In this document: one piece after another, positions 11,328 to 35,204 of the stretch | Layout of the letters: the number at the start of each line of letters is the position of its first letter | Position numbering within the stretch: position 1 is the stretch's first letter | From: Promethearchaeota archaeon | GTDB taxonomy: Archaea > Asgardarchaeota > Lokiarchaeia > Sigyniarchaeales > SOKP01 | Assembly (NCBI GenBank): GCA_011364975.1 | Contig: RDOE01000015.1 | Span: forward strand, 1 to 56,407 | DNA: 56,407 nucleotides | Reading direction: 5' to 3' | The notes under the pieces: generated by a model | What the model was told of the DNA's origin: nothing | Seen by the model: only the letters and a program-made list of their open reading frames with translations | The model's database searches: none | Translations under genes and position numbers: made by a program

Positions 11328-11342
11328 ATGGACAATAGAAAT
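11328..11342. promoter_or_regulatory. Putative operator, shared-motif copy (ATGGACAATAGAAAT)
   Basis: Matches the 15-bp motif at 14712, 19910, 29001 and 35190; 82 nt upstream of the ligase start and adjacent to a TTTTTAAA box on the minus strand. Confidence 0.45.
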
Positions 11343-11539
11343 TAAACTTTCAATATAGTATGTTAAAGAATCGATAGTATAAAATAATTTTTGATTTTGA
11401 AACGCTAACTACTATTTAAATAAAATAGAATTATTCTACTCATTCAAAAATAAATAAATAGAAACTTTTATATTTTAAATGAAATAAAATAATTATAATT
11501 ATTATATATCTGGTACCAAACAATATAAATTGATTAAAA

Positions 11540-12397
11540 TTGGAAAAAAAAATGACTAAAAAGGATTTAAAACCAATTGAACGCAATACACCTACGTTCC
11601 AAAAGATAAGAAAATATGGTTGGTTAATAAGATTACCAATTCTTAAGCAACTATATAGAAAAAAACATCATCCTCGCGGATTTGACGCAGAAGCAGGACA
11701 AATAATTCCAGTCAATCTACAAGCAGGAGATTATCAAACTGAAGCAATACCTCTCACATTAATGGATTATTTTATCGATAAAGCAGGGACAATTGTGATT
11801 GTACAATGCCCATGTAGAGTTACAAATGAATGTAACAATCATAATATTGACTTAGGATGTATCTGGATGGGTAAGGGGGCTGCAAATTTAGACTTAAACA
11901 ATCTCCCTGGAGGAAGTAAAGGTCGTTTTGCAACCAAAGAAGAAGCTAAAGCTCATGCTCGTGCTGCTCTTAAAGATGGTTTAGTTCCTGCTTTAGGAAA
12001 ACTGCGCGGGGATGCTGTAGCGTACAATGTATTAGAATTTGAGGATGAATTCATGAATTTCTGCTTCTGTTGTCCTTGTTGTTGCGTGACAGCTGGTATG
12101 AAATATGCAAACTCTGATTTCAAGCATTATATAAAACGTATGGAAGGAGTAACAGTAATTACAGACCCAGAGAAATGCGTAGGCTGTGGGACTTGTTTTA
12201 AGGTTTGTATTTACGATGGATTAAAAATGGTAAAAGGGAAAGCGATTCATACTGATAAATGTATAGCTTGTGGCAATTGTGAAGCTGTATGCCCCAATGG
12301 TGCTATATCCATTAATTTTGATGAAAATATGGATATAGATGAGGTAATGGTCAAAATAATTCAACGATATGAAAACATTGTAGACATATCTGGTTAA
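11540..12397 (+). CDS. Cys-rich Fe-S protein with C-terminal 2x[4Fe-4S] ferredoxin; short form with no SCP2 domain (paralog 1)
   Basis: CPCR..C..GC, CFCCPCCC, CVGCGTCFKVC, CIACGNCEAVCP. Confidence 0.9.
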   Translation: MEKKMTKKDLKPIERNTPTFQKIRKYGWLIRLPILKQLYRKKHHPRGFDAEAGQIIPVNLQAGDYQTEAIPLTLMDYFIDKAGTIVIVQCPCRVTNECNNHNIDLGCIWMGKGAANLDLNNLPGGSKGRFATKEEAKAHARAALKDGLVPALGKLRGDAVAYNVLEFEDEFMNFCFCCPCCCVTAGMKYANSDFKHYIKRMEGVTVITDPEKCVGCGTCFKVCIYDGLKMVKGKAIHTDKCIACGNCEAVCPNGAISINFDENMDIDEVMVKIIQRYENIVDISG

Positions 12398-12440
12398 TAA
12401 CCTATTTTACCATCTAAATCAAAATAGAGGTTTTATTCAT

Positions 12441-14057
12441 ATGTTTATAAAAAAAGTAATAAGTAAACTACCTGAAAAAACGCTAAGCAAATTAGTGTTG
12501 AAAGGCATCTTAAGAAAATCTGTTGATACTTCAGATGAAATATATCAAAAAGATTTTAAAAACTTTATATTTAAAGTGAATTGGAATATTTCAGGCGCTA
12601 TTGGTTATCAAATTTATGATCAAACGAGTTACTCATATAAATATGGGGAGCATCTCGTTGATGCCGATGTTCTGCTTTCTATTCCAAAAATTGAGCATGT
12701 AAGACAACTGGTTAAAGGTGATGGGTTAGACCTTGAAATGAGCAGAGATAAGGAACGTAATTTTCAATTATGTATAAAAGATCCAATTGTTATTGCTCGA
12801 TTTAAAGAAGAAGTAAATCCTAATCCTCGTATAATAACACAATTACCGCTTTTTAGGGATATACAAAAACAATGGCATTATGGTAAAACTTTATTTGAGT
12901 TACCAGAGGAAATTTCTGTAGAAAAGGAGGAAATTGAATCATTAGTGAAAAAAATGCTCACTGATTCTGATAGAGTGTCAGATGAGAATTATCAGAAAAC
13001 ATTTAAAGACCGGGTTTTTAAAGTGAATTGGGACATACAGGGCATTTTGGCATACCAAATCTTTGAGGAAACACGTTATACTTATGAATTCGGGAAAAAT
13101 CTGGATGATGCAGATGTTACCTTAATGCCCACGAGTATGAAATATGCAAAGCTATTGCTTCAAGGAGTCCTCATAGACATCACCCATGGTAAAGATGTTA
13201 ACAACAATTTTCAACTCTGTGTGAAGATTCCAATGTTATTAACTCGATTTAAGGACCCAGACCTTAGTCCACTAGTTCTTTCGAAGTTGCCCTTTTCTAA
13301 GAGTATGCGAAAGGAAACTAAAAAAGAGGAAAAAGGCGAAGAATATGGATCCTATATTCCTGTTAATCTTTCAGCAGGTGAGTACGAGAATGAAATAATA
13401 CCCCTGAAAGTGTTTGAATACTTCATTGAGAAAGCAAGTAATATTGTAGTTTGCGAATGTTTATGTAGAATAAATTATGACTGTAAGAATCACGATAAAA
13501 AATACGGTTGCATGTATATGGGCGATGATACAAAGAATATGGTACTTCATGATAGACAGCGTAATATTTCAAAGGAAGAAGCTGTTCAATTCGTTAAAGA
13601 AGCCATTGATGATGGTTTGATTCCTTTAATCGGAAGATCAGTAGGAGAAACTGAAGGACAATCAATTAGGGATACAGGACACTTTTTATCCAGTTGTTTC
13701 TGCTGTACATGTTGTTGCATTAATGGTAAAATGATTTCTAATGCGTCTCATGCAATGATATCTGATAATATGATTAAAAGAATTAAAGGATTAGAAGTCA
13801 AAATTGATCCCGCGAAATGTGTTGGCTGTGGAACCTGCCTTGGAGTATGCGTGTTTAAGGGCAGAGAAATAGTCGATGGAAAAGCAACTATCGAGCCGGA
13901 ATTTTGCTTAGGTTGTGGAAGATGTGTAGATGTATGCCCTAATGGGGCCATTTCCATTGAAATCGAGGATCAAAGCTACATTGACGAACTAATTACTAAA
14001 ATAGAATCTCTTGTCGATGTAGAAGACCAAAAGAATAATATTTCCACAATTAGTTAG
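12441..14057 (+). CDS. Tandem SCP2-like x2 + Cys-rich Fe-S/2x[4Fe-4S] protein (paralog 2)
   Basis: Internal repeat (FKVNWNISG..YQIY..YKYGEHLVDADV / FKVNWDIQG..YQIF..YEFGKNLDDADV), CLCR, CFCCTCCC, two ferredoxin motifs. Confidence 0.88.
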   Translation: MFIKKVISKLPEKTLSKLVLKGILRKSVDTSDEIYQKDFKNFIFKVNWNISGAIGYQIYDQTSYSYKYGEHLVDADVLLSIPKIEHVRQLVKGDGLDLEMSRDKERNFQLCIKDPIVIARFKEEVNPNPRIITQLPLFRDIQKQWHYGKTLFELPEEISVEKEEIESLVKKMLTDSDRVSDENYQKTFKDRVFKVNWDIQGILAYQIFEETRYTYEFGKNLDDADVTLMPTSMKYAKLLLQGVLIDITHGKDVNNNFQLCVKIPMLLTRFKDPDLSPLVLSKLPFSKSMRKETKKEEKGEEYGSYIPVNLSAGEYENEIIPLKVFEYFIEKASNIVVCECLCRINYDCKNHDKKYGCMYMGDDTKNMVLHDRQRNISKEEAVQFVKEAIDDGLIPLIGRSVGETEGQSIRDTGHFLSSCFCCTCCCINGKMISNASHAMISDNMIKRIKGLEVKIDPAKCVGCGTCLGVCVFKGREIVDGKATIEPEFCLGCGRCVDVCPNGAISIEIEDQSYIDELITKIESLVDVEDQKNNISTIS

Positions 14058-14233
14058 TTTATTTAGGAGTAGAAAAAGCATATAACATCTTTTATTAAAA
14101 TTAATTTAAAATAAGACTTTAATTTATATCTAATCCATATTTATTATGATTCAAGGGATATTTTAAGTTTATATTCCAAAAATCTCTGATAAAAAATAAA
14201 AATGATAAATCAGTAATAAAGAGGACTTTAAAA

Positions 14234-14683
14234 ATGCATGAATTTTCTATGGTAAATCAAATATTTAGGAAGTGCTTAGAAGTGGCAAGACAGAATAACG
14301 CCAAATCACTTAGCGAAATCAATCTTGAAATAGGAGATTTTGCTTTAATTGTCGAGGTTTATGCCCAACAAGCTTTTAATGCGTTAAAAAAAGGTAGCAT
14401 TGCAGAAAATGCTGTGCTAAATATTAAAAGGACTCCTGGTGTGCTTTATTGCAATTCCTGTCAGCAAAAATCTGAAATTTGGTTTAATGAAGAAAAGGAA
14501 AAAGCAGCAAATGAAGGAAGATTGAAGGAATATGAACAATATGAAAAAGCAATAACTGAAGAATCGTTACTTAAAGGTAATCCTAATTTAGGAAGAAATC
14601 TTTTTCATTGTCGAAAATGTGGGAGTTCTGATACTAACCTTATTGAAGGAAAGGGAGTTTTAATTAAAAATATCCGGTTGTAA
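14234..14683 (+). CDS. hypA: Nickel metallochaperone HypA with a long insertion between the CxxC motifs
   Basis: N-terminal MHE Ni-binding motif; CNSC ... CRKC; C-terminal G.G..IKNI. Confidence 0.9.
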   Translation: MHEFSMVNQIFRKCLEVARQNNAKSLSEINLEIGDFALIVEVYAQQAFNALKKGSIAENAVLNIKRTPGVLYCNSCQQKSEIWFNEEKEKAANEGRLKEYEQYEKAITEESLLKGNPNLGRNLFHCRKCGSSDTNLIEGKGVLIKNIRL

Positions 14684-14711
14684 TAAACTTTCAATCTTTC
14701 CTTATATTTTG

Positions 14712-14726
14712 ATGGACAATGGGCAT
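14712..14726 (+). promoter_or_regulatory. Putative operator, shared-motif copy (ATGGACAATGGGCAT), followed by a TTTAAATA TATA-like box
   Basis: Quasi-palindrome 74 nt upstream of 14801. Confidence 0.6.
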
Positions 14727-14800
14727 TTATTTAAATAATGCAATATTTTAATTTTTTAAGGCTTTTTAATGAGAAAAAAGAAAGTTAAGGTGGATATAAA

Positions 14801-15670
14801 TTGGGAAAAAAACTGAAGAAAAAGGATCTAAAACCGATTGAACGAAATACACCTTTGTTTCAGAAGGTGAAAAAGTATGGCTGGTTGACAAGATTACCAA
14901 TACTTAAGCAACTTCATAGAAAAAAGAATTATCCTCGTGGGTTCGATACTGAAGCAGCTCAGTATATTCCGGTCAACCTCAAAGTAGGCGATTATGATAG
15001 CGAAGTAATTCCCCTCAAATTGATGGACTATTTTATAGATAAAGCAGGTACAATCGTTATTAGGGATTGTCCATGCCGTGTTACTAATGATTGCAAAAAC
15101 CACGACAAAGAACTTGGATGCATTTGGATGGGAAAGGGTGCTGCTAATCTTGATTTAAGAAAACTCCCAGGAGCTGGAAAGGAAGGACGATGTGCAACAA
15201 AAGAAGAAGCGAAGGCACACGTTCGCTTAGCACTAAAAAATGGCCTTGCTCCCGCTTTAGGAAAATTACGAGGGGATGCTAGATTATATAACGTTTTAGA
15301 ATACGACGATGAACTCATGAATTTCTGCTTCTGTTGTTCTTGTTGCTGCGTTGCTGCGGGATATAAATATGGTAACTCTGATTATAAAAATTATGTAAAG
15401 CGTATGAAAGGAGTTACGTTTGTTACCGATCCTGAGAAGTGCGTAGGCGTAGAGAACTGTGGGAAGTGCTTTAAAGTATGTGTATATGATGGATTGAAAG
15501 TGGTAAATGGAAAATCAGTACATACAGAAAATTGCCTAGGCTGTGGGCATTGTGAGGCTGTATGCCCTAATAATGCTATTGCCATTAAATTTGATGAGGA
15601 TTTGAACATCGACGAAGTAATTGAGGGTATAATTAACCGATATGAAAAAATTGTAGATATTTCTGGTTAA
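14801..15670 (+). CDS. Cys-rich Fe-S/2x[4Fe-4S] protein, short form (paralog 3, close copy of 11540..12397)
   Basis: Nearly the same N-terminus (KKDLKPIERNTP.FQK..KYGWL.RLPILKQL), CPCR, CFCCSCCC; TTG start after AGGTG. Confidence 0.9.
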   Translation: MGKKLKKKDLKPIERNTPLFQKVKKYGWLTRLPILKQLHRKKNYPRGFDTEAAQYIPVNLKVGDYDSEVIPLKLMDYFIDKAGTIVIRDCPCRVTNDCKNHDKELGCIWMGKGAANLDLRKLPGAGKEGRCATKEEAKAHVRLALKNGLAPALGKLRGDARLYNVLEYDDELMNFCFCCSCCCVAAGYKYGNSDYKNYVKRMKGVTFVTDPEKCVGVENCGKCFKVCVYDGLKVVNGKSVHTENCLGCGHCEAVCPNNAIAIKFDEDLNIDEVIEGIINRYEKIVDISG

Positions 15671-15678
15671 TAGAAAAG

Positions 15679-17307
15679 GTGAAAATGAGATTGAGTATAA
15701 GAGATTTGAGTACACTCCCCGATAGCAAGCTAAAAGAAGAATTGATGAAATTTATTTTAAATGATGTTGACGTATCGGATGAGCTATACCAAAAAAGCTT
15801 TAAGGAGCCCTATAAAGTTAATATAGATATTTGCGGACTTAAGGGTTATCAAATTTATGAACCAGATAAATATACTTCCAAATTGGGAGAAAATCTCGAA
15901 GACCCCGATCTTTCAATTAATTTTCGAGATATAGAATACATCAGGCAATTGCTCCGAGGGGAAAAAGTAGGTATTGAAAATGGACGAGACAAAAATTATA
16001 CCCTTCACGTAAATAGAAAAGACCTCTTCATATCTACGAATAGAAAGAATGCACAAGTTTTAATGGCTAAAATACCCTTATTCGATTCGATCGTAAAAAA
16101 TTTTGGTACTAGTCGTCAAGCTAAACGTTTACGCGATGAATCTGGACCTCTTGACCCGGTACAAGAAGGTGAAATTGTCATGCTAATGAAAAAAATGTTA
16201 AAAGAGTCTGTAGATACTTCAGACGAACTTTATCGACGAAATTTTCAAGGGCAGGTTTTAAAAGTCAACTGGGACATCAATGGAAACATTTCTTACCAGA
16301 TTTTTGAAGAAACCAAATATAGTCATGAATTTGGGAAACATATCGAAGACGCAGATCTTACACTTGTAATTGAAAATCCAGATTTTGCAAAACGATTTCT
16401 ACTCCAAGCATCTACTAATTATGCTCCTGGTTTGGATGATGACAATAATCTTCTTATTTATATAAAAACTCCTGTCATAAGTATTCAGTTCAAAAATCCA
16501 GATGAAAACCGCTTTTCTCTAGTAAGATTACCTTTCTTTCGTACTTTGATGCAAATAAAAGCCTCTGAAACACCACAAGAAGAGAAAAAGGAAGAACGAG
16601 AGAATTATGGACACTATATTTCAGTTAATTTGCCAATGGGCGACTTTGAAAATGTCGTTGTACCATATAAAGTATTTGAACACTTCATCAATAAAGCAAG
16701 TAATATTGTCCTCCGAACTTGTCCTTGTCGAGAACGTTGGGCCTGTCAAAATCACTCGATTGAATTAGGGTGTATTTTTATGGGAGACGACACTAAGAAT
16801 ATGGCGCTATCCCCTGAAGAAGGTTATATAGCTACGAAAGAGCAAGCCTTAGAACATTTAAGAAAAGCGATTGACGAAGGTTTGGTTCCTTTATTAGGAA
16901 GAAATGTCGCGGAAGCAGAAGATGGACATGGAGTTATGGATACAGGAAGCTTTTTATCTGGTTGTTTCTGCTGCGAATGTTGTTGTATTGGAGTAAAGAC
17001 TCGTCAATATGGTGCATATACTAGCATGGCAGGAGATAAACCTGGAAGTATTGAGGGTATGAAGATAAAGATCGACTATGAGAAATGTGTTGGTTGCGGA
17101 ACTTGTGTAGAAACTTGTCCATTTAAATTTAGAAAAGTTGTTGATGGAAAGGCTGCTGTTGATCCTAATCAATGTATAGGATGCGGAAGATGCATAAATG
17201 TATGTCCAAATGGGGCGATAATGGTCAATATAGAAGATCCAGATTATATTGAGAAATTTATAGCTAAGATCGAATCTATAGTCGATGTTACTGACCAAAA
17301 TGCTTAA
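15679..17307 (+). CDS. Tandem SCP2-like x2 + Cys-rich Fe-S/2x[4Fe-4S] protein (paralog 4); start probably ATG 15685
   Basis: Two KVN.DI.G..YQI repeats, CPCRERWAC, CFCCECCC, CVGCGTCVETCP, CIGCGRCINVCP. Confidence 0.88.
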   Translation: MKMRLSIRDLSTLPDSKLKEELMKFILNDVDVSDELYQKSFKEPYKVNIDICGLKGYQIYEPDKYTSKLGENLEDPDLSINFRDIEYIRQLLRGEKVGIENGRDKNYTLHVNRKDLFISTNRKNAQVLMAKIPLFDSIVKNFGTSRQAKRLRDESGPLDPVQEGEIVMLMKKMLKESVDTSDELYRRNFQGQVLKVNWDINGNISYQIFEETKYSHEFGKHIEDADLTLVIENPDFAKRFLLQASTNYAPGLDDDNNLLIYIKTPVISIQFKNPDENRFSLVRLPFFRTLMQIKASETPQEEKKEERENYGHYISVNLPMGDFENVVVPYKVFEHFINKASNIVLRTCPCRERWACQNHSIELGCIFMGDDTKNMALSPEEGYIATKEQALEHLRKAIDEGLVPLLGRNVAEAEDGHGVMDTGSFLSGCFCCECCCIGVKTRQYGAYTSMAGDKPGSIEGMKIKIDYEKCVGCGTCVETCPFKFRKVVDGKAAVDPNQCIGCGRCINVCPNGAIMVNIEDPDYIEKFIAKIESIVDVTDQNA

Positions 17308-17390
17308 AATCGAGTTATATTAAATTTTTTATCCTTTATAATATTAATCTGATATAAAATTTTCAAAAAATATTAATTAAATTGATATAA

Positions 17391-18605
17391 ATGGCAAAAC
17401 GCGGTAAAGAATTTTATAATAGGTATTTTGCAAGGCAATCAAGATTCAGTATTTTGCCTCCAGAAGATAAATATTTATTTAGAATTTCTCCAAAATATAA
17501 ATTTAATATCATAGGTTCAGGTATGATGGGAATTGAACATCTGCGAACAACATATTTGGAAGGTCGAGCTCTTATTCATGGCATATATGATCCTAATCCA
17601 AAAAGTGTCACAGCAACACAAAATGTACTATCTCAAATTGATCCTGAACAAAAATTAAAAATTTACGATACACTAGAAAACGCTTGTAAGGATCCAGATG
17701 TTGATGGGTTAATAATTTCCACTCCAAATTTCTCTCATATCTCAGTTATCAAAGAAGCAATAAAGTCAGAAAAGCACATACTACTTGAAAAACCTATGGC
17801 AACAACCATTCCTGATGCCTATGAAATCTATAAGATTGCTGAGGATTACCCTTCAGTGTTTCAAGTTGGGTTACAATACAGATATAAAGCAATGTATGTT
17901 GAAGCTATACAAGAAGCTCTAATCAATAAGAGGTTAGGTGATATCAAAATGATAAACATCTCTGAATACAGGTTTCCGTTTTTAGATAAAGTGAACCAAT
18001 GGAACAAGTTTAATCAATATTCTGGGGGAACATTGGTTGAAAAATGTTGTCATTATTTTGATTTAATGAATTTATTTGCTCAATCTAAACCAAAGAAAGT
18101 TTATGCTACGGGAAATATGGCAGTAAATTTCAAAGAATTTGAATATAATGGGAGAAAATCAGACATTTTAGATAACGCGGTAGTAAGTCTTGATTATGAA
18201 AATGGTGTTAGAGCAAGTTTTAACTTATGTATGTTTTCACCCCAATTTTACGAAGAATTGACGATCTGTGGTGATGAAGGGTACCTTCACAGTTATGAAA
18301 ACATTGATTATTTACCTGGAACCAAACCAAAAACCTACTTGGAATTAAAATTAGGGGAGGAATCAAATTCAAGAATATCACAACCTTGTTATCCAAAATA
18401 TATTGAAGAATCTGGGCATAGCGGAGCAACGTTCTTCGAACATAAGTATTTCATAGATACCATAGAGGGGAAAGAAACATCTGTTGCTACAGCAAAAGAC
18501 GGATTATGGTCTATTGTCATTGGCTACGCTGCTCAGAAGTCTATTGATTTAGGAATTCCATTAATCATACAAGACCTTCTAAAAGAATTCTCTCTTAATA
18601 TATGA
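17391..18605 (+). CDS. Gfo/Idh/MocA family NAD(P) oxidoreductase
   Basis: IIGSGMMG, ISTPNFSH, ILLEKPMA, GGTLVEKCCHYFD. Confidence 0.92.
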   Translation: MAKRGKEFYNRYFARQSRFSILPPEDKYLFRISPKYKFNIIGSGMMGIEHLRTTYLEGRALIHGIYDPNPKSVTATQNVLSQIDPEQKLKIYDTLENACKDPDVDGLIISTPNFSHISVIKEAIKSEKHILLEKPMATTIPDAYEIYKIAEDYPSVFQVGLQYRYKAMYVEAIQEALINKRLGDIKMINISEYRFPFLDKVNQWNKFNQYSGGTLVEKCCHYFDLMNLFAQSKPKKVYATGNMAVNFKEFEYNGRKSDILDNAVVSLDYENGVRASFNLCMFSPQFYEELTICGDEGYLHSYENIDYLPGTKPKTYLELKLGEESNSRISQPCYPKYIEESGHSGATFFEHKYFIDTIEGKETSVATAKDGLWSIVIGYAAQKSIDLGIPLIIQDLLKEFSLNI

Positions 18606-18641: not shown

Positions 18642-19847
18642 TCAATGTATTTCATCTGAGATATATTGAGGAGTTACATCGACATATTTTTCAATTTTTC
18701 CAATTAATTCATCAACGCGGTCTATATCATCGATGGTGATGGTGGTTGCACTAGTGGGACACACTTCTGCGCATCTACCACAACCTAAGCATCGTGTTTG
18801 ATCAATTTTTGCTTTTCCATCAATAAGCTCCCTGCCTCGAAAAACGCACACTTCAACGCACTTACCACAACCTTTACAAAGATCTTCATCTACATTCACG
18901 GAGACGCCTTCTACTCTTGAAAACATCGTTAAATTAGCATTAGGACCAAATCGCATAATCTTTCCATTTATACAGCAACAATCGCAACAGAAACAAGCTG
19001 CTAAGAAGCGACCTTTATCTTCAACGCCATATCCCGCAGCCTCACCCATAGCGCGTCCTAACAATGGAATCAACCCATCATCTATCGCTTTCCTTACGCG
19101 TTCCAAAGCTTCCTCCTTTGTAGCAAAATGTCCTCTTTCTTTAGTAATTTTCATTTGTAGCGTATCATCTCCCATATATAGGCAACCTAGAGATTTGTCA
19201 TGATGTTGGCAATCGTTAAAGCGCCTACAACCACAATAATCCATTAATACAATGTGACTGGCTTTTTCTATAAAATGTTCAAAAACCTTATAGGGAATAA
19301 CCTTGTTTTCATATTGGACATCCAAATTAATTGGTACATAAGCCCCAAATTCTTCTTTTCTCGAGATTAGATTCATACCTCTTTGAAATGGTGGCAATTT
19401 TAAGAGGTTAAAGGGATGTTTAACTTTATTATTATAAGCTATTGCAGTTAAATATCGATGGGATATCCTTTGCTTTCTTAATCCCTTTTCCGACTCTACT
19501 TCTTTAAACCCTTCCACATAGTCTACTTTGAACCTGCCCTTATAATCTCTTCGGGGTGCATAGCTAAAACCCATATTGGCCCCCTCGAAAAATCGAATAG
19601 CTAACTCTGGATTACTGATGCGTACTAGTAAATCAGGGTTCTCTAATTGTTCCCCTATTTTATAAGCATAATTATCTTTTTCAAATATTTGATACCCGTA
19701 GACTTTCTTAATTTTCCATTGAACTTTGATTATCCCTTCAAAATCTTGGATGTCCTTCTGAAAAATTGGACTCCTTCGGGCGATTCGACCTGAATCCTTC
19801 ATCATCTTATTGAATGCAGATAATAATTCATCATCTTTCTCAGACAT
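18642..19847 (-). CDS. SCP2-like + Cys-rich Fe-S/2x[4Fe-4S] protein (paralog 5)
   Basis: VQWKI..GYQIFEKDNYAYKIGEQLENPDL; CGCR, CFCCDCCC, two ferredoxin motifs. Confidence 0.88.
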   Translation of the reverse strand: MSEKDDELLSAFNKMMKDSGRIARRSPIFQKDIQDFEGIIKVQWKIKKVYGYQIFEKDNYAYKIGEQLENPDLLVRISNPELAIRFFEGANMGFSYAPRRDYKGRFKVDYVEGFKEVESEKGLRKQRISHRYLTAIAYNNKVKHPFNLLKLPPFQRGMNLISRKEEFGAYVPINLDVQYENKVIPYKVFEHFIEKASHIVLMDYCGCRRFNDCQHHDKSLGCLYMGDDTLQMKITKERGHFATKEEALERVRKAIDDGLIPLLGRAMGEAAGYGVEDKGRFLAACFCCDCCCINGKIMRFGPNANLTMFSRVEGVSVNVDEDLCKGCGKCVEVCVFRGRELIDGKAKIDQTRCLGCGRCAEVCPTSATTITIDDIDRVDELIGKIEKYVDVTPQYISDEIH

Positions 19848-19909
19848 GTTATTTTAGATCCTTAATGTTTAGTATTAATTAAAAAAAGGTTTGATTTAAT
19901 TTAAAATAA

Positions 19910-19924
19910 ATTGCCGTTGGACAT
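19910..19924 (-). promoter_or_regulatory. Putative operator, shared-motif copy (minus strand ATGTCCAACGGCAAT)
   Basis: 62 nt upstream of 19847, flanked by TAA/TTA; lies in the divergent region shared with the acyl-CoA dehydrogenase gene. Confidence 0.6.
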
Positions 19925-21781: not shown

Positions 21782-21812
21782 TCTTTTTTAATTTGTCCTT
21801 CTATGATGCTTT

Positions 21813-24209: not shown

Positions 24210-24293
24210 TTAATTAAATTGTAGGCGATAAATATTCGGGCTAGATTTTGGAAAAGGTATTATAAAGAAGAAAGTAGTACTAAAAAGAATGCG

Positions 24294-26395: not shown

Positions 26396-26492
26396 ATTAG
26401 TTTTATCAAATTTGATTTTTTTTGGTATTTTTAAGAGAATTATGGATTCTTTATAAAAAATTGTTTAATAAAATAATAGGTTGTATTGTAGC

Positions 26493-27686: not shown

Positions 27687-27769
27687 AAGAAAAACTCTTC
27701 AATTAATTAAATTTATATGTTAAAATAACTTTTAGCTTATAAAATCTATATATTCTTCCTTTTCTTAGA

Positions 27770-28936
27770 TTAATCTACTTTAACGTGAGAATTTAATTCT
27801 TCAATTAACGCATCAATATTGTTTGAGTCATTAAATGATATAGAAATTGCCCCGTTAGGGCAGGCTTCCACACACCTTCCACAACCAAGACATCGATCCG
27901 TAATATATGCAATACCATCTATCATTTCATTTCCATTCCAAACGCAAGCTTCAATGCAATCTCCACATCCAACACATGCGTCTTCATCAATCACTACACT
28001 AAGTCCTTCTATTTTTTTTATAAATCTAAGTTCGCTTGTAGCATGCTTCATAATTGGAATATCAACGCAGCAACAAGGACAACAAAAACATGCTGACATG
28101 AATTTTCCTGTATCTTCAATACCTGCTCCTACAGCCTCATCCATGGCTCTTCCAATTAGTGGGATCAAACCATCATCTATAGCTCTTTTCACAGGTTCCA
28201 AGGCTTCTTCCTTTGTTGCAACATGCTTTCTCTCTTCATCAATCGGCAGATTTAGTGTATCATCACCCATGTTTAAGCAACCTATCGAATGATCGTGATT
28301 TTGACAGTTCTTACTGACTCTACAACCACATTTATTCAAAATGACAATGTTGCTTGCTTTTTCAATGAAGTGTTTAAAAACAGCATAGGGTATAACTTGG
28401 TTTTCATACGTCCCAAGAGACTGATTTATTGGGATGAAAAATCCAATATCGTCATCAGACATTCGTGTTGCCACCAATTTTCGAAGGATGGGCAATTTTG
28501 ATAGCATGTAGGGATGAAAGTCCTTCTCTTTATTAAATCGAACCGTTATAAATGGCTTATTACTTCTTACGTTCTTTTTTCCGGTTTCTGTTTCGATTAC
28601 CTTCCATGATTCCGTGTAGTGTATTTTGAAATTACCACCATAAGCCGGTCCGTAATCAAATTCAAAAACCTCCCCTTTTAGGAATCGAAGTGCTAACTCT
28701 TTATCCCTAATTATCAATGTAATGTCAGGATTCTCTAAAATATCTCCAAACTTGTAAGATATTGAATCCTTCTTAAAGATTTGAGATCCTCGAATTTTAA
28801 AAGGTAATTTCCATTGAACTTGTAACTCCCCAACAGTTTCCATATCTTTCTCATAAATTTTGTCATTCGGTGCTGCTTTCTCTTGATCCTTCAACATTTC
28901 TAAAAAGTCTGATTCGATTTTTGGTTTATCTACCAT
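27770..28936 (-). CDS. SCP2-like + Cys-rich Fe-S/2x[4Fe-4S] protein (paralog 6)
   Basis: VQWKL..GSQIF..YKFGDILENPDITL; CGCR, CFCCPCCC, two ferredoxin motifs. Confidence 0.88.
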   Translation of the reverse strand: MVDKPKIESDFLEMLKDQEKAAPNDKIYEKDMETVGELQVQWKLPFKIRGSQIFKKDSISYKFGDILENPDITLIIRDKELALRFLKGEVFEFDYGPAYGGNFKIHYTESWKVIETETGKKNVRSNKPFITVRFNKEKDFHPYMLSKLPILRKLVATRMSDDDIGFFIPINQSLGTYENQVIPYAVFKHFIEKASNIVILNKCGCRVSKNCQNHDHSIGCLNMGDDTLNLPIDEERKHVATKEEALEPVKRAIDDGLIPLIGRAMDEAVGAGIEDTGKFMSACFCCPCCCVDIPIMKHATSELRFIKKIEGLSVVIDEDACVGCGDCIEACVWNGNEMIDGIAYITDRCLGCGRCVEACPNGAISISFNDSNNIDALIEELNSHVKVD

Positions 28937-29000
28937 AGTATCACTTAATATCGTGTTAAAATTTAGTTACTATCTAAAGTCTAATTTATTATTTAAAGCT

Positions 29001-29015
29001 ATTTCCATTGGGCAT
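29001..29015 (-). promoter_or_regulatory. Putative operator, shared-motif copy (minus strand ATGCCCAATGGAAAT), followed by TTTAAATA
   Basis: 64 nt upstream of 28936. Confidence 0.6.
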
Positions 29016-29099: not shown

Positions 29100-30563
29100 T
29101 TGGTTCAAATGAGTGAAACAATTAACTTTACTGAATCTCTTGAAACAAGACATTCAAGATGGACCTTTCTTTCAAATGCCTTCGGTTTACTTTGCTCTAC
29201 TTTAATAGGTGCTGTTCAAGGGTTTACCATTTTCTATTATGAAGCTGTTGTTGGATTAGATGCAATATTAGTTGCTATTGCCATGACAATCTTTCTGATC
29301 TATAACGGAGCTAATGACCCTATCTTTGGTTTTTTAATCGATAGGAATTTCAGATTTACGAAAAGATGGGGAAGAAGATTTCCATGGATCGTCGTAGGCA
29401 TCATCCCTTGGGTCATTTCTGTCTATCTTCTCTTTTCAGTTCCAAGTACCATCGATGGTTCTACAAATCCTGGGGCTGCCTTTGGATGGTTATTATTAAC
29501 ATTGGTTTTACTTGACACCTTTGGCACACTTGTGAATATTAATTACAAAGCAGTTCAAATGGAAAAATTTCGGTCGGAGTACGAGCGTCGAAGATTCACA
29601 AAATATTATGCACCTCTCGACATTTTAGCTATTGTCCTTGGAATGTTATTACCTCCTCTTTTTACTGATATGATTCCTGGCGATCCAAGAGCCAGCTATA
29701 GCATGATGGGAGCGATAATCGCCGTAATAGCTCTTTTTTTCGGTATTTTATCTCTTCCTGGAAACCGTGAGGACAAAATAATGATTGATAAGTATTATTC
29801 ACCCGATTCTGTGAAACGAATGAATTTTTTTAGAGTCTTTAAAGAAGCTATAAAATCGAGAACTTTTATGGTATGGTTTATATTTGGAATGTTTAATGGA
29901 ATATATGTCTCCCTTGTTGTAACAAACATGATATATATAACAACTTTTGTCTTACAAGTTGGTGGAGATATGTTTCTTGTTATTTTAGGTTTAAATCTCA
30001 TAGGTAGCTTGATATCTATTCCTTTGTGGGTAAGATTTATCCGAAAAATAAACAATAATAAGAAAGCTCTCGTGGTTGCGGGTTTCTTATCATGTGCTGC
30101 GTTATTTCCATTGACATTTTTTCAGGGCCTAATTGATATAATGATCATGGCACTCGTTCTCGGACTCGCCCAGGGAGGTGTAAACTCATACGTATACACT
30201 ATAATCGGTCCGAGTGTGACCGAGGATGTTATTGTTAAGATGGGAAAAAATCAAAAAGCGATTCTCTTCGGAATTTCTGCATTACTTGGTCGTCTTGTTG
30301 CATCAATTGATGAATTTGTTATTGCATTCGTCCACGATACAACAGGGTTTATAGCAGGTAATGATACTTATGCGGATATGTTAGCAGCAGTCACATTAGC
30401 TGGCGGTGATATAAATTTAGTACTTATAGGTATACGCCTCCTCCAAGGAGTCATTCCAGGGTTATTTTTACTAGTGGGTGTTCTGATTATTTGGAAGTTT
30501 TTCCCCCTAACTCAAGAAAGGTTATTAAGTAATAAGGCTAAGATGCAAGAACTCGGATTTTAA
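29100..30563 (+). CDS. GPH/MelB-like (MFS_2) glycoside-cation symporter
   Basis: NGANDPIFGFLIDR...RWGRRFPWI; ~12 TM; C-terminal FPLT. Confidence 0.9.
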   Translation: MVQMSETINFTESLETRHSRWTFLSNAFGLLCSTLIGAVQGFTIFYYEAVVGLDAILVAIAMTIFLIYNGANDPIFGFLIDRNFRFTKRWGRRFPWIVVGIIPWVISVYLLFSVPSTIDGSTNPGAAFGWLLLTLVLLDTFGTLVNINYKAVQMEKFRSEYERRRFTKYYAPLDILAIVLGMLLPPLFTDMIPGDPRASYSMMGAIIAVIALFFGILSLPGNREDKIMIDKYYSPDSVKRMNFFRVFKEAIKSRTFMVWFIFGMFNGIYVSLVVTNMIYITTFVLQVGGDMFLVILGLNLIGSLISIPLWVRFIRKINNNKKALVVAGFLSCAALFPLTFFQGLIDIMIMALVLGLAQGGVNSYVYTIIGPSVTEDVIVKMGKNQKAILFGISALLGRLVASIDEFVIAFVHDTTGFIAGNDTYADMLAAVTLAGGDINLVLIGIRLLQGVIPGLFLLVGVLIIWKFFPLTQERLLSNKAKMQELGF

Positions 30564-32043: not shown

Positions 32044-32102
32044 GGGGATGCTAGGTCTTACCATTATCATCTGAATATATTACAGGTATAACAGAAGGTG
32101 CT

Positions 32103-32756
32103 TCATTTTTTTTGGATCACTATAGCTCTACAAAAACTACTGTCTAATCCTTGAACTTTATATGGTAATGCCATGACATAGAAACGCTCATGAGTAATTT
32201 TATCCAGATTATCTACAAATTCAACAAAGTTAACGTCAAAACTCATTAAAATATCGTGAAATTGTCTGGTTTCTTCAATGTCCTCTCCAAAACGAATATA
32301 GTCTAGTACTATAAGCTTAGGTTTATATTTTGCAAGCCAATCTGCAGCACTAGGAGAAAGTTTTGGTAATCTATCCTCTCCTTCCATATATAATTGCAGT
32401 TTTGTTAGCTTAACTCCTGTATCATTCCTAATTACTACTATATCTCCTTCTTGAATAACATTTCCAATAGATTTTTCGCAGTATTCCCCATCTACTGTCA
32501 TTTCTTTTACCGATAAAAGTACTCCTGGACCATGAAACTGGTCCAAGGGATAATCTGTTATGGTTTTGCCATTTTCATAGAAATGTGCTCCCACTTCAAC
32601 ATGACAACCTACGTGAGAATGAGTTTTAAGAATGTCATAGCGGAATGTTTTATCTTGTAATAGTGCTTTTTGAATTGCGAAAGGTCGATCCGCATCTTCA
32701 CCAGGAATAACAGTATGGGAAATATCAATTACTTCATAATTATCTAAATTAAACAT
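32103..32756 (-). CDS. Cyclase / kynurenine formamidase-like metal hydrolase
   Basis: IDISH, HSHVGCHVEVGAH (variant of HxGTHxDxPxH), VE.VDNL, ALPYK..GLDSSFCRAI. Confidence 0.85.
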   Translation of the reverse strand: MFNLDNYEVIDISHTVIPGEDADRPFAIQKALLQDKTFRYDILKTHSHVGCHVEVGAHFYENGKTITDYPLDQFHGPGVLLSVKEMTVDGEYCEKSIGNVIQEGDIVVIRNDTGVKLTKLQLYMEGEDRLPKLSPSAADWLAKYKPKLIVLDYIRFGEDIEETRQFHDILMSFDVNFVEFVDNLDKITHERFYVMALPYKVQGLDSSFCRAIVIQKK

Positions 32757-32803
32757 ACAACATCAAATGATTATTACTTCTAAATTTTTTCTATAGAATT
32801 AGG

Positions 32804-33982
32804 TTAGGAAACATCTACACTCGCTTCAATCCTTCGGATTAACTCTTCGATTCTCTTCGGATCATCTAAGCTTATTGTTATAGCCCCATTTGGACAGACT
32901 CGTTCACATCGTCCGCAACCTAAACATTTATCTTGATGAACTTTAGCTATTCCATCTTCCATCTCCATTCCATCGAAGACACAGACTTTCAAGCATTCCT
33001 CACATCCTACGCAAAGTTCTTCATCAACCTTTACCGAGATTCCTTCAACCTTCTTGATAAGATTCGAAAGTTCTGTGGTTCCATAACGCCATTTTCCATT
33101 GATACAGCAACAGGGACAGCAAAAACATAACGTCATAAAATGGCCTCTATCAGGTACACCCATTGATTCTGATTCTAGTTTTAGCCGCCCAATAACTGTA
33201 ATCAGACCGTCATCATAAGCTTTTTTTACTCTATCCATTGCTTCTTCCCTAGTTCCAAAATGAGCCCGTTCTGGAGTGATCTTTGGAAAAACTTCCTTTA
33301 CATTTAAGGTATCTGAACCTAAATACATACAACCGATTGAATGATCATGATCTTGACACTGGTTATAAATCCTACAACCACAATAATGGAACATAAGAAA
33401 ATTTTCTGCTTTATTGATAAAATGTTCAAGTATCTTTAGAGGTAGGACTTTATCCTCATATGTTCCTAGCGATTCATTAATTGGAAGATAAGATCCATCG
33501 GTAATTTTAGGATTATACCATTTTTCCACTATGTCTCTAAAGATTGGAAGTCGAGTTATGGTAAAGGGGTGGTAAAATACTCCTTTGGTATAGCGCATAG
33601 TTAAAAGCAATTTAAGATTCTTAGTTTTCAGATTCTCCTCACCCACCCTAATTGGCTCCCACTTTTCTATAAAATAGAATTTTGCCTTCCGTTTATAAAA
33701 TAGGTAATTGAAATTATCGATCTCACCATTTAGAAGTTTTAAAGCAGTATTTATGTCTTTAATTTCTAAAGTTATATCCGGATTGTCAAGTACTTCCCCA
33801 AATTTATAGAAATATCCTCCATTATTAAATTCCTGAAATCCTTTAACTCCACAAATGTCCCACTGAATATTCAGGACGAAGTCCTTTAAATCCTCTTGTA
33901 GAATTGCATCTTTTTCCAAAGAATCCTCAAGATTCTCTAACATTTCTTTATATTTTTCTTCTATTAGGATAATTTCTTTCAA
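32804..33982 (-). CDS. SCP2-like + Cys-rich Fe-S/2x[4Fe-4S] protein (paralog 8)
   Basis: IQWDICGVKGFQEF..YKFGEVLDNPDITL; CGCR, CFCCPCCC, two ferredoxin motifs. Confidence 0.88.
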   Translation of the reverse strand: MKEIILIEEKYKEMLENLEDSLEKDAILQEDLKDFVLNIQWDICGVKGFQEFNNGGYFYKFGEVLDNPDITLEIKDINTALKLLNGEIDNFNYLFYKRKAKFYFIEKWEPIRVGEENLKTKNLKLLLTMRYTKGVFYHPFTITRLPIFRDIVEKWYNPKITDGSYLPINESLGTYEDKVLPLKILEHFINKAENFLMFHYCGCRIYNQCQDHDHSIGCMYLGSDTLNVKEVFPKITPERAHFGTREEAMDRVKKAYDDGLITVIGRLKLESESMGVPDRGHFMTLCFCCPCCCINGKWRYGTTELSNLIKKVEGISVKVDEELCVGCEECLKVCVFDGMEMEDGIAKVHQDKCLGCGRCERVCPNGAITISLDDPKRIEELIRRIEASVDVS

Positions 33983-34012
33983 TATTTTCCTCTTTTTTAT
34001 TTTAGATTTTGG

Positions 34013-35125
34013 TTAACTTACATCTACAAATTCTTCCATCTTTTTTATATATTCATCGAGACGTTTAGGATCATCAAGTTTGATATTAATTGCACCATTC
34101 GGGCATACTGGTTCACACCTACCGCATCCCAAGCACCTTTCTTGATCAATTACCGCCTTTCCATCAATTATATTTCTTCCGACGAATATGCATACTTCAA
34201 GACAAGTTCCACAGCCTACACACTTTTCGGAATCAACCTCAACGGTTAAACCTTCCATTCTTTTGAAACCTTGTATTTCTATTGTAGCATTTTGCCATAC
34301 TTTTCCGTTTACACAACAACAGGGACAGCAAAAACACATTGACATTATATGGCCAGTATCTGTTGCCCACCCATTTGTTTCACCCGGAGATCGACCAAAT
34401 ACAGGAATTAAACCATTCTTAATTGCTTTTTTTACATGTCTCAATGCTTCTTTTTGAGTAATGTAGCGTCCCTTTTCAGGAGGTAATTTAATACTTTTAA
34501 CATCATCACCAATATACATACATCCTAAGGTTTTATCATGGTCTTCACAATCGTGATAAACTCTACATCCACAGACGTTTTGGATATAGAAATGTTTTGC
34601 TTTTTTGATGAAATACTCAATTAATTTTTCAGGTAATAATTGATTTTCATACGTACCTAAAGACGTATTAATTGGGATGTAAGAACCATGTGTATTTTCA
34701 GGCTCTGTTCGCCTTACAGCAATTTCTCTAAAAATAGGAAGTTTAGTTAATATATAAGGATGATAAAATATACCTTTGGTATAAAAACCAGTTAAAAGAA
34801 GTCTTTCTTCAGCATATAACTTAAATTTACGTTTATAATAGATATAATGGTACCTTTCTAAATTTCCCTTCATAAAGTCTAATGTTAGTTCCCTATCTGC
34901 AAATTTAAGGGTAAGATCGACATCTTCTATTTCTTCTCCAAATCCATGGAAATAATTGCCATCTTCGAAAATTTGATAACCTTTAAGACCATTTAGAAAC
35001 CATTGGAATTTCATATTGATGTCTTTCCAATCCTTTTTTAAAACATCATCTGTGTCTATTAGATTATCTATATCATCTAACATCTTCTTAAAATATTTCT
35101 CAAGCTCAGCTTCTTGGTCAGACAT
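34013..35125 (-). CDS. SCP2-like + Cys-rich Fe-S/2x[4Fe-4S] protein (paralog 9)
   Basis: FQWFLNGLKGYQIF..FGEEIEDVDLTL; CGCR, CFCCPCCC, two ferredoxin motifs. Confidence 0.88.
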   Translation of the reverse strand: MSDQEAELEKYFKKMLDDIDNLIDTDDVLKKDWKDINMKFQWFLNGLKGYQIFEDGNYFHGFGEEIEDVDLTLKFADRELTLDFMKGNLERYHYIYYKRKFKLYAEERLLLTGFYTKGIFYHPYILTKLPIFREIAVRRTEPENTHGSYIPINTSLGTYENQLLPEKLIEYFIKKAKHFYIQNVCGCRVYHDCEDHDKTLGCMYIGDDVKSIKLPPEKGRYITQKEALRHVKKAIKNGLIPVFGRSPGETNGWATDTGHIMSMCFCCPCCCVNGKVWQNATIEIQGFKRMEGLTVEVDSEKCVGCGTCLEVCIFVGRNIIDGKAVIDQERCLGCGRCEPVCPNGAINIKLDDPKRLDEYIKKMEEFVDVS

Positions 35126-35189
35126 CTTCTATTACACTTTCTTTATACTTAGATTTATAATGTTGTGAATGAAATAAAAGGTCTTCTAA

Positions 35190-35204
35190 ATGCCCATCGT
35201 ACAT
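35190..35204 (-). promoter_or_regulatory. Putative operator, shared-motif copy (minus strand ATGTACGATGGGCAT)
   Basis: 64 nt upstream of 35125. Confidence 0.6.

Follow-up and report, generated by a model that had tools for sequence, protein, structure and literature searches.

A 15-bp promoter element marks a putative local, TetR-linked regulon in an Asgard archaeon

Operators of TetR-family proteins, tetO and others, are commonly built on a 15-bp core with a central unpaired base and CA-n-TG, and the genes for their regulators lie adjacent to the genes they control. A regulator gene placed behind its own motif-bearing promoter is typical of self-regulated local repressors. In the archaeon Sulfolobus acidocaldarius, the TetR-family protein FadR is described as recognizing a 16-bp dyad motif with only four genomic sites and as repressing a 30-kb cluster (PMC6449355).

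Here we describe a similar layout in the window, by which we mean the whole 56,407-nucleotide stretch of DNA analyzed, from an uncultured Asgard archaeon. A 15-bp element, very probably a selected regulatory site, lies directly upstream of the BRE/TATA region, probably overlapping it, in five promoters of a predicted catabolic cluster of about 35 kb. The signal marks a small, locally controlled gene set comprising uncharacterized iron-sulfur enzymes, a CoA ligase, and transporters.

Position and form of the sites

A degenerate-pattern search recovered the five 15-mers exactly where the initial annotation had placed them, at 11328(+), 14712(+), 19910(-), 29001(-), and 35190(-), and its distances also stood: four copies lie 62 to 74 nt upstream of genes for Fe-S paralogs, and one lies 82 nt from the start (11245) of a ligase-TetR operon. 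That minus-strand operon comprises an acyl/aryl-CoA ligase of the AMP-binding family as its first gene (9395..11245), the TetR-family regulator that is our candidate binder (8710..9387; Pfam TetR_N PF00440, E 6.6e-9), and p169 (8121..8630), a hydrophobic 169-aa predicted membrane protein of no known family whose gene is the usual downstream neighbor of the TetR gene in metagenome contigs. The TetR gene begins 8 nt past the ligase gene and is therefore probably cotranscribed from the promoter that carries site 1 (11328..11342, plus strand, 17 bits), the conserved half of which adjoins a TTTTTAAA box at 11316-11323 (-). The same site is 197 nt from the paralog start at 11540, and because of that distance its control of the plus-strand genes at 11540..14683 (a paralog pair of 285 aa and 538 aa plus a HypA-like gene) is uncertain.

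The strongest copy, site 2 (14712..14726, plus strand, 22 bits), is followed by TTTAAATA at 14730-14737 and precedes by 74 nt the 289-aa paralog gene starting at 14801, which heads a putative plus-strand operon (14801..18605) with a 542-aa paralog and a GFO/IDH/MocA oxidoreductase. Site 3 (19910..19924, minus strand; box TTTTAAAT at 19899-19906, minus strand) occupies a divergent region, 62 nt upstream of the 401-aa paralog gene (18642..19847, minus strand) and 108 nt upstream of an operon of ACAD-like, GH2 glycosidase, and MFS genes (20033..25568, plus strand). In the 401-aa paralog, the N-domain is SCP2-like, the middle domain is rich in Cys, and a 2x[4Fe-4S] ferredoxin domain follows. Site 4 (29001..29015, minus strand; box TTTAAATA at 28990-28997, minus strand) is likewise divergent, 64 nt from the start at 28936 of a putative operon for a 388-aa paralog, a BNR-repeat protein, and a Fer4-nitroreductase (25571..28936, minus strand) and 84 nt from the gene for an MFS_2 (glycoside-type) transporter (29100..30563, plus strand). 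Site 5 (35190..35204, minus strand), with a T-rich TTTTATTT box at 35172-35179 (-), stands 64 nt before the start at 35125 of a putative operon encoding 370-aa and 392-aa paralogs and a cyclase-family protein (32103..35125, minus strand).

A variant sixth site (5212..5226, plus strand, 11 bits) shares its distal half with the others but not its proximal half. On either side of the control region that holds it, the minus-strand permease operon of an Opp/Dpp-type ABC transporter (851-4909) and a plus-strand gene for a family-5 solute-binding protein (5473-7944) diverge. The variant is kept 171 to 179 nt upstream of TetR start codons in a related genome (G015) and in three metagenome loci (L068, L075, and L076).

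The TATA-like box claimed beside the sites, of the TTTAAA/TTTTAT type, is present 3 to 10 nt past each of the five. A T-rich box follows at 3 to 6 nt in most of 24 sites aligned from this and related DNA, and at 10 nt for site 5. Across the genome, TTTAAA/TTTATA-type hexamers form only a broad hump 50 to 80 nt before start codons, so the spacing to the box is weak support. Placement relative to genes is also fixed: in the window and related loci pooled, 19 of 32 intergenic hits of at least 12 bits lie 59 to 80 nt upstream of a start codon in the same direction.

The element had been called a quasi-palindrome, a description that held in part. Its dyad symmetry is weak, with 2 to 5 of 7 half-site positions symmetric (mean, 3.7) among the 24 sites, and within the window the ATG..CA.TG..CAT frame is complete in site 2 only. 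A direct-repeat reading with period 7 does equally well or better (mean, 4.1 of 6). Most of the information sits in the TATA-distal half, ATGGACA, and in the TGG after it; G3, C6, and G11 are invariant. The proposed operator is laid out as that distal half, one free base, TGG, and an A/T-rich tail, usually with T-A/T-A before it. At the ligase promoter and the TetR/ABC promoter the orientation is opposite, the conserved half being the one that adjoins the TATA-like box.

Non-random sites, restricted to one cluster and conserved

Within the window, the degenerate pattern ATGNNCRAYRGNNAT has 6 matches against 0.20 expected, and none of 100 shuffles yielded 6 or more, a comparison that is circular, the pattern having been fitted to the sites themselves; the sixth match is inside a coding sequence at 44328. 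Further tests are less circular. Genome-wide, 6 of its 12 occurrences fall in the window, which is 1.5% of the 3.74-Mb genome. A scoring matrix was also made from the five sites. All five intergenic 15-mers scoring at least 16 bits are the sites themselves, and none lies outside the window in 541,540 intergenic bases, with "intergenic" defined by our own simple ORF caller. When each site was left out in turn, 3 to 19 of 1,012,630 intergenic 15-mers scored at least as high as the omitted one, counts into which the omitted site itself, the four sites used for training, and reverse-strand duplicates all enter. The matrix found no site at the Fe-S paralog promoters at 30838 and 39470 or at the copy on contig C105. 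A few genomic sites confined to one cluster are what a local regulon like that of S. acidocaldarius FadR would present.

The element is also conserved upstream of orthologs, a check that the initial annotation had proposed: three related genomes and independent metagenome contigs have it with distance and orientation unchanged. In those genomes (G015, G003, and G004), DNA outside the matrix training carries sites ahead of genes for paralogs, GH2, the solute-binding protein, and the HypA-like protein, the last with the element 139 nt before the called start. The promoter orthologous to that of site 5 has its site 62 nt upstream in G015, and site 4 has orthologs in G003 (L036 2946) and G004 (L038 826). 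Not every orthologous promoter retains a site: for the 388-aa paralog, the best score at the G015 ortholog is 7.6 bits. Elsewhere in the relatives, the element recurs 75 to 76 nt upstream of a GH2-MFS operon (75 nt in G015, whose GH2-MFS orthologs have a site of their own), a solute-binding protein gene, and an MFS_2-paralog-BNR-TetR operon, the last exemplified by metagenome locus L090, where a 20-bit site lies 75 nt before an MFS_2-led operon that ends in TetR. Another metagenome locus, L081, has a site identical to site 2 in the equivalent location and keeps the conserved positions at the place orthologous to site 1. Over the 43 metagenome loci found via TetR, 8 positions reach at least 16 bits in 34,297 intergenic bases.

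It is very improbable that the element lacks a regulatory function, having arisen by chance, as promoter DNA copied with the paralogs, or as a recombination site from cassette shuffling. The paralogs of the cluster form an array that rearranges, with a different gene order in this genome (G000) and G015, and the tandem genes starting at 11540 and 14801 were duplicated recently (77% identity), both of which would suit such an origin. Chance fares badly when the genome-wide background is zero at scores like those of the five sites, and the window showed no recombinase gene. Copying with the paralogs would leave its mark in the flanks, yet these are no more alike than random: pairwise identity is 0.73 within the motif but 0.31 in the 40 nt upstream and 0.33 in nucleotides 13 to 40 downstream, against 0.34 for random intergenic 40-mers, and at the best offset the flanks reach 0.44 to 0.49 against 0.47. 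We therefore reject a dispersed repeat or a coduplicated promoter segment, the latter one of the explanations the initial annotation had named as fatal to its claim, since similarity does not reach into the flanks. Moreover, paralogs with only 30 to 49% protein identity keep a constant spacing between site and start codon, and in other genomes the element also precedes nonparalogous GH2, solute-binding protein, MFS_2, and ligase genes.

With sites restricted to the cluster, proximal to promoters, and conserved in relatives, a local regulon is the natural reading. The set is real, but its original description as Fe-S paralogs plus the ligase was too narrow, as MFS and ABC transporters and the GH2 operon belong with it. 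Its predicted members are the SCP2/Cys-rich/ferredoxin paralogs, the CoA ligase, the regulator itself, the MFS and ABC transporters, and neighboring genes.

The candidate binder and the mode of control

The TetR protein at 8710-9387 is, from sequence, a plausible best candidate for binding the element. It is a helix-turn-helix regulator of the TetR_N family encoded within its presumed target cluster, it is predicted to fold like known TetR structures, and its helix-turn-helix is near-invariant among 40 homologs of 49 to 85% overall identity. No other regulator gene was found at 0 to 51 kb of the window, nor any plausible small ORF in the gaps. G015, the closest relative, has a syntenic ortholog (68% identical), and in the window, G015, and metagenome loci the TetR gene stands behind the motif or its variant in at least five arrangements: ligase-TetR (the window and L062), paralog-ligase-TetR (L091), MFS_2-paralog-BNR-TetR (L090), a solute-binding protein gene divergent from TetR-ABC (G015, L074, and L096), and TetR with its own leader (L068, L075, and L076). 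By sequence, a putative operator also lies in the regulator's own control region, as site 1 is upstream of ligase-TetR.

We consider it somewhat unlikely that the same cluster-specific operator is bound by another factor, with TetR merely one of the regulated genes. Such a factor could be unlinked, or it could be the HTH_24/MarR-like protein at 51876-52598. The motif accompanies paralog genes in G000, G015, G003, and G004, but a TetR ortholog was detected only in G000 and G015. Despite a good site upstream of the 388-aa paralog ortholog in both of the others, the best match in G003 (81% complete) is 35% identical and on a different contig, and G004 (83% complete) has no match at E 1e-3; the syntenic stretch of G003 runs paralog, p169, solute-binding protein, and ABC genes, with ligase and TetR absent. 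Upstream regions of TetR genes in L060, L077, L088, L093, L094, L095, L097, and L098 had no motif on examination. Three of these encode distant homologs with the same recognition helix (L060, L093, and L094; 54 to 55% identical), and the L077 protein is 74% identical. The weak dyad symmetry also suits a different binder, and HTH_24 has homologs in G015, within the syntenic region (50% identity), and in G003, on contig C58 (45% identity), where a strong site is about 6.5 kb away. Against the HTH_24 protein, its gene and the closest site in the window are 17 kb apart, the protein changes faster than the motif does (45 to 50% identity), and G004 has no clear ortholog, the best match there being to part of a 416-aa frame, at 40% identity. 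TetR, meanwhile, is the sole regulator gene inside the motif-bearing stretch and recurs behind motif-bearing promoters in many independent arrangements.

The sign of control is a separate matter. Sites of fixed orientation whose conserved half points away from the TATA box belong more typically to activators; Ptr2 and TFB-RF1, for example, are archaeal activators that bind just upstream of BRE/TATA, and FasR, the name of the best NCBIfam hit, is a TetR-family activator. The element could thus be an upstream activating sequence at which the bound factor, TetR or another, recruits TFB/TBP to weak promoters and switches the cluster on. Strict orientation and spacing to the TATA-like box and start codon (59 to 80 nt), with the conserved half distal, fit this reading, as does the end of the site 3 to 6 nt before the T-run, which places it upstream of the TATA box and not over it. 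We nevertheless regard activation as unlikely: the orientation is not universal, being reversed at the ligase and TetR/ABC promoters, and the asymmetry may stem from BRE constraints on the proximal half. Most TetR proteins are repressors, including S. acidocaldarius FadR as it is described (PMC6449355).

Repression by TetR remains our preferred reading, and the complete statement, an operator of a local regulon, bound by TetR and acting by repression, has in our judgment about an even chance of being right. TetR binding, repression, and the effector's identity are what we infer. A dimeric TetR-family protein (8710-9387), the most likely binder, would sit at the edge of the TATA box and hinder recruitment of TBP/TFB, keeping the cluster off, until a small-molecule effector released it. 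Candidates for the effector are a CoA thioester produced by the ligase and the hydrophobic substrate as such; the link of the cluster to acyl-CoA is circumstantial.

Comparison with described TetR-family systems

Among structures in the PDB, the best sequence hit of the TetR protein is AibR (5k7f, E 4.6e-8, HTH region only), and Foldseek matches of its model include AibR, Bacillus subtilis FadR, FasR, and PvrA. A further likeness to these acyl-CoA-responsive regulators is the CoA ligase predicted to be cotranscribed with the TetR gene here. E values and TM-scores (0.5 to 0.67) do not separate acyl-CoA-responsive TetRs from those with unrelated ligands, and the model, a generic TetR fold, has moderate confidence (pLDDT, 74.7); no ligand can be assigned.

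The element resembles tetO in its 15-bp core, single central unpaired base, and CA-n-TG at the center, as that geometry is generally known, and in a regulator gene that adjoins its targets. Its dyad is far less symmetric (mean, 3.7 of 7 positions), and it abuts an archaeal TATA-like box, whereas tetO overlaps a bacterial -10/-35 promoter.

The analogy to Sulfolobus FadR proposed at the outset survives as one of architecture, with few sites and a local cluster of about 30 kb, and not as one of descent. We reject orthology, as S. acidocaldarius FadR is absent from the 31 PDB sequences that phmmer returned at E 1e-3; in Foldseek it appears (6en8_E) at rank 42 with a TMq of 0.61, among generic TetR matches. 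The motif sequence differs, the host is an Asgard archaeon and not a crenarchaeon, the main cargo here is SCP2/Cys-rich/ferredoxin paralogs, a glycosidase, and transporters, and regulation here is predicted. In other respects this cluster is much like that of FadR as described: a TetR-family regulator gene lies inside the cluster it would control, a site of about 15 to 16 bp, only weakly palindromic here, occurs in a handful of genomic copies within a single cluster of about 30 kb, CoA ligase and acyl-CoA dehydrogenase-type genes are present, and one site falls in the regulator's own control region (PMC6449355).

Position and genomic background of the 15-bp element

Five copies of a 15-bp element, at 11328 (+), 14712 (+), 19910 (-), 29001 (-), and 35190 (-), were found at exactly the coordinates and on the strands reported in the initial annotation. 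The measured distances to the paralogs of the SCP2/Cys-rich/ferredoxin family that start at 14801, 19847, 28936, and 35125 are 74, 62, 64, and 64 nt, and site 1 lies 82 nt before the start of the coenzyme A (CoA) ligase gene at 11245, all within the spacing originally claimed. The same site precedes the called start of the paralog gene at 11540 by 197 nt.

The degenerate pattern proposed for the element matches the window 6 times against 0.20 expected, with at least 6 matches in none of 100 shuffles. Because such a test is circular, the whole genome was scored instead (3.74 Mb in 200 contigs, 30.6% G+C), using approximate gene calls based on a greedy choice of the longest open reading frames (ORFs) of at least 70 aa (3,340 ORFs, 85% of the DNA). 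Genome-wide the pattern occurs 12 times, half of these (6 of 12) inside the window. Under a log-odds matrix built from the five sites, every match above 14.3 bits outside the window is coding DNA, and the 541,540 intergenic bases there hold 22 positions of at least 12 bits, 9 of at least 14, and none of at least 16. When each site was left out in turn, 3, 6, 6, 18, and 19 of 1,012,630 intergenic 15-mers scored as high as the omitted site or higher, counts that also cover the omitted site itself, the four used for training, and reverse-strand duplicates. Enrichment over background, set as a check when the motif was first described, was thus confirmed in that the intergenic matches of at least 16 bits in the entire genome are exactly the five sites. 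The matrix background and the leave-one-out ranks together show that the element is real and restricted to this cluster.

The sixth pattern match in the window, at 44328 to 44342 (+; 14.3 bits), falls within a Lar_N-like coding region and is taken as a chance match. Contigs from four DNA runs in four studies represent near-identical strains, so that finding none of the 40 differences listed (of 392) in sites 1 to 3 is a test without power. The contigs of all four runs show an extra G after window position 11541, the TTG start called for a 285-aa paralog, whose true start is probably the ATG at 11553.

One possibility, raised in the initial annotation, is that the shared sites are only promoter DNA duplicated along with the genes behind them. 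Twelve members of the paralog family and a more distant one at 35413 lie in the window, and beyond it there are one further copy, on contig C105, and a few remote relatives. The genes behind sites 2 to 5 share only ~30 to 49% N-terminal identity, and the flanks of the five sites are no more alike than random intergenic 40-mers of the window (0.34 identity), at 0.31 over the 40 nt upstream and 0.33 over nt 13 to 40 downstream. The motif itself reaches 0.73 and the A/T box after it 0.41, so the likeness is restricted to the motif and, weakly, the A/T box that follows. Coduplication was therefore rejected as the explanation; whatever its origin, the element has been kept by selection.

Conservation in relatives and anatomy of the motif

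Conservation upstream of orthologs, another check asked of the motif, was found in three related genomes, G015, G003, and G004. The closest relative, G015, carries orthologs of nearly all window genes in a rearranged yet syntenic cluster of ~90 kb. Scored with the window-derived matrix, its intergenic DNA has a site 62 nt ahead of the gene orthologous to the 370-aa paralog and sites 72 nt ahead of two genes for 285-aa paralogs. Others stand 75 nt before a GH2-MFS operon, 76 nt before the gene for the solute-binding protein, where that gene and TetR diverge, and 139 nt before the start called for a HypA-like gene. The ortholog of the 388-aa paralog has a strong upstream site in both other genomes (67 nt in G004; ~84 nt before the match start in G003), and another strong site lies on contig C58 of G003.

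Few genomes of the genus show an expansion of the paralog family. No site occurs in four genomes with only a small MFS_2/paralog/paralog cluster (G002, G008, G014, and G033), where intergenic scores reach 8.9 bits at most, and the window ortholog of the mini-cluster gene, at 30838, is also without one. This paralog, 80 to 86% identical to its mini-cluster orthologs, may be an older, differently controlled core of the family. Its gene (30838 to 32043, +) lies in a stretch of 42.5% G+C in surroundings of ~33%.

Scanning metagenomes with the TetR protein gave 43 contigs with homologs 51 to 85% identical, nearly always next to the ligase, a 169-aa membrane protein, ABC/solute-binding genes, or paralogs. 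The intergenic DNA of the contigs (34,297 bases), absent from matrix training, holds 18 positions of at least 12 bits (15 loci), 13 of at least 14 (12 loci), and 8 of at least 16 (8 loci), to be compared with 22, 9, and 0 in the 541,540 intergenic bases of the genome beyond the window. These counts are not independent events since the contigs are akin to one another and to the window. A profile model of the site plus its TATA region, built from sequence only and run on 61 genomes, had its best matches outside the training genomes in G032 and G037 (E 0.008 to 0.01). All 7 loci inspected (L111 to L117) lay within unrelated ORFs and were rejected as sites, making the model too unspecific for a phyletic profile; its many weak matches arise from the A/T-rich tail.

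A weak motif-like element at 39657 to 39671 (-; 7.7 bits), between the abhydrolase gene and the 559-aa paralog, has a 12.0-bit counterpart in G015 (contig C111, position 91340), and in both genomes it stands 27 to 29 nt before the abhydrolase start codon. It is uninformative because the entire intergenic region is conserved about equally.

A pooled set of 61,668 intergenic bases, drawn from the window, the G015 stretch, four loci from G003 and G004, and the 43 metagenome loci, yielded 32 intergenic matches of at least 12 bits. Nineteen of these precede a start codon of the same strand by 59 to 80 nt; the other 13 are more distant, at contig ends, or of doubtful quality. In an ungapped alignment of 24 sites (21 distinct), T2, G3, C6, and G11 are invariant, A1 and A14 are at least 90% conserved along with T at -2 and A at 0, position 8 is free, and positions 12, 13, and 15 are weak. 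The conserved part reads T-x-A, ATGGACA, one free base, and TGG, and a T-rich box of the TTTAAA/TTTATA type begins 3 to 6 nt past it.

The description of the site as a quasi-palindrome holds only loosely: symmetry is weak, at 2 to 5 of 7 positions (mean of 3.7 across the 24 sites), and a direct repeat of period 7 fits as well as the dyad (mean of 4.1 of 6). Both readings arise because the half-site hexamer and its reverse complement differ in two inner letters only. Such symmetry is less than ideal for reading by a TetR dimer. The conserved half lies distal to the A/T box at paralog promoters and proximal to it at the ligase and TetR/ABC promoters. Genome-wide, a Shine-Dalgarno-like GGTGA peaks 6 to 15 nt before start codons, and TATA-like hexamers form only a broad hump 50 to 80 nt upstream of them. 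This distribution is compatible with a TATA-box role for the box after the site and supports it weakly; the site would then cover or touch the BRE position.

Candidate regulator and its probable mode of action

The TetR gene (8710 to 9387, -) is the only regulator gene recognized by Pfam between 0 and 51 kb of the window. A second regulator gene, at 51876 to 52598, encodes an HTH_24/MarR-like protein, and a search of the window gaps for small unannotated regulator ORFs found none plausible. The TetR helix-turn-helix is near-invariant across 40 homologs (49 to 85% overall identity), as expected if these share an operator. TetR also lies downstream of the motif or a variant of it in at least five gene arrangements: ligase-TetR (the window and L062), paralog-ligase-TetR (L091, site 63 nt upstream), MFS_2-paralog-BNR-TetR (L090, site 75 nt upstream), a solute-binding protein gene divergent from TetR-ABC (G015, L074, and L096), and TetR with its own leader (L068, L075, and L076).

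The variant is represented in the window by the next-best intergenic match, at 5212 to 5226 (+; 11 bits), in the interval that separates the ABC permease operon from the gene for the solute-binding protein; it has the distal half in common with the other sites and lacks the proximal TGG. With 0 to 2 differences in 15 letters, it recurs 171 to 179 nt upstream of the TetR start in G015, L068, L075, and L076, and a related variant occurs in L078 and L082. Window positions 4910 to 5260 align over their length with the TetR leaders of G015 and three metagenome contigs, and an ATG followed directly by TAG occupies ~5035 to 5040 (-; hand-counted on the alignment), where the others have the TetR start. 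This interrupted start suggests that, in the window's lineage, TetR once preceded the ABC operon and was later relocated to follow the ligase.

The gene at 8121 to 8630 (-) encodes a hydrophobic protein of 169 aa that belongs to no known family and looks like a four-helix membrane protein. On metagenome contigs this gene is the usual neighbor on the downstream side of TetR, and in G003 it still adjoins the gene for the solute-binding protein even though TetR is missing.

Other observations, together with the weak symmetry, count against TetR. G004, which has a good site, has no TetR homolog at E 1e-3, and the sole homolog in G003, which has good sites, is 35% identical and located elsewhere; both assemblies are incomplete (83% for G004 and 81% for G003), and the cluster is fragmented in each. 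The syntenic stretch of G003 contains a paralog, the 169-aa protein, the solute-binding protein, and ABC genes without the ligase or TetR. Homologs 54 to 55% identical and with the same recognition helix (L060, L093, and L094) have no upstream motif, the motif is likewise absent upstream at L077, and loci of TetR paralogs in the genus (L047 to L056, 35 to 54% identity) have nothing above 13.4 bits and nothing convincing. Homologs of the HTH_24 protein occur in the syntenic region of G015 (50% identical) and on contig C58 of G003 (45%), and G004 has no clear ortholog of it. Provided that the site is functional, we lean toward TetR as its binder.

The sites lie directly against the A/T box, a position in which a bound dimer would probably interfere with TFB/TBP; such interference would repress transcription, and an effector would relieve the repression. 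Alternatively, given the strict orientation of the site at paralog promoters, the bound factor may act as an activator. A bolder reading makes the element the switch of an Asgard-specific pathway built on the large uncharacterized paralog enzyme family, with its SCP2-like lipid-binding, ten-cysteine, and 2x[4Fe-4S] ferredoxin domains, and read in an orientation-dependent manner at the BRE edge, with the TetR-family protein possibly an effector-controlled recruiter of TFB/TBP instead of a simple roadblock. We consider this unlikely; if true, the effector would reveal which hydrophobic compound the enzyme family acts on.

The predicted TetR fold (pLDDT 74.7) matches many TetR structures about equally, so no effector can be named from it. 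The acyl-CoA binders AibR, Bacillus subtilis FadR, FasR, PvrA, and Sulfolobus acidocaldarius FadR (SaFadR) are among these matches (TM 0.5 to 0.67) and do not separate from the rest. Acyl-CoA is suggested as the effector solely by the ligase, with which TetR is probably co-transcribed; both the binding role of TetR and the signaling role of acyl-CoA are inferences.

Gene content and known systems

The local regulon of paralogs and ligase proposed initially is supported, and its extent now reaches beyond those genes: the cluster comprises six short sites, one candidate regulator, and ~20 to 25 genes. Neighboring genes encode the CoA ligase, an ACAD-like protein, SCP2, alcohol dehydrogenase, CoA transferases, GH2, a BNR protein, and MFS and ABC transporters. 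This set looks like a catabolic island for a hydrophobic or glycosylated substrate, which loosely fits the earlier acyl-CoA idea. A gene for a HypA-like nickel metallochaperone (14234 to 14683, +) lies inside the paralog array and is conserved in G015, there with its own operator copy, and a Lar_N (lactate-racemase N-terminal) domain protein is encoded at 43448 to 44749 (+); the two hint at a nickel-dependent step.

In public annotation the paralogs carry no description beyond 4Fe-4S or ferredoxin-like protein, and the entries that name an organism come from Asgard (Promethearchaeota) metagenome bins. The family has 281 relatives at E 1e-10, widespread in metagenomes and mostly Asgard-labeled where the organism is given. 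The family member at 18642 to 19847 (-) and its 11 paralogs between 11540 and 39470 have three parts, as seen in a confident model (pLDDT 89.6): an N-terminal predicted SCP2 fold (matching 3bn8 over 104 residues at VIA Z 8.7, and several other SCP2 entries at Z 6 to 8), a middle domain with ten invariant cysteines that include a C-x-C-R motif and five Cys within six positions (287 to 292), and a C-terminal 2x[4Fe-4S] ferredoxin. Pfam at E 1 matched nothing in the N-terminal 300 residues of the paralogs, NCBIfam matched the ferredoxin part only, and the Foldseek matches in the PDB were limited to the ferredoxin domain and an SCP2-like piece. A VIA-wide search gave nothing for residues 160 to 310, and the middle domain is without a PDB match.

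To our knowledge, almost nothing is known experimentally of gene-specific transcription control in Asgard archaea, and this cluster offers a compact, testable case. Identifying the effector that releases the regulator would give inexpensive access to the substrate of the paralog family, and the conserved operator could help to mark out the pathway elsewhere, in other genomes. A literature survey at listing level, which is not proof of absence, found neither a TetR regulon of this kind nor a description of this family for Asgard archaea. This instance is new, and its value is mainly as a handle on an uncharacterized Asgard enzyme family.

The closest precedent for the architecture seen here is SaFadR. 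SaFadR is reported to recognize a 16-bp dyad motif, to bind only four genomic sites, one of them within its own control region, and to repress a 30-kb cluster of 23 ORFs (PMC6449355). The two regulators are not orthologous: SaFadR is absent from the 31 PDB sequences matched by the window TetR at E 1e-3, the best of which is AibR, in the helix-turn-helix region only. By analogy, the kind of system proposed here is already known, a local operator and its regulator as with Sulfolobus FadR, and its mechanism would be an ordinary one.
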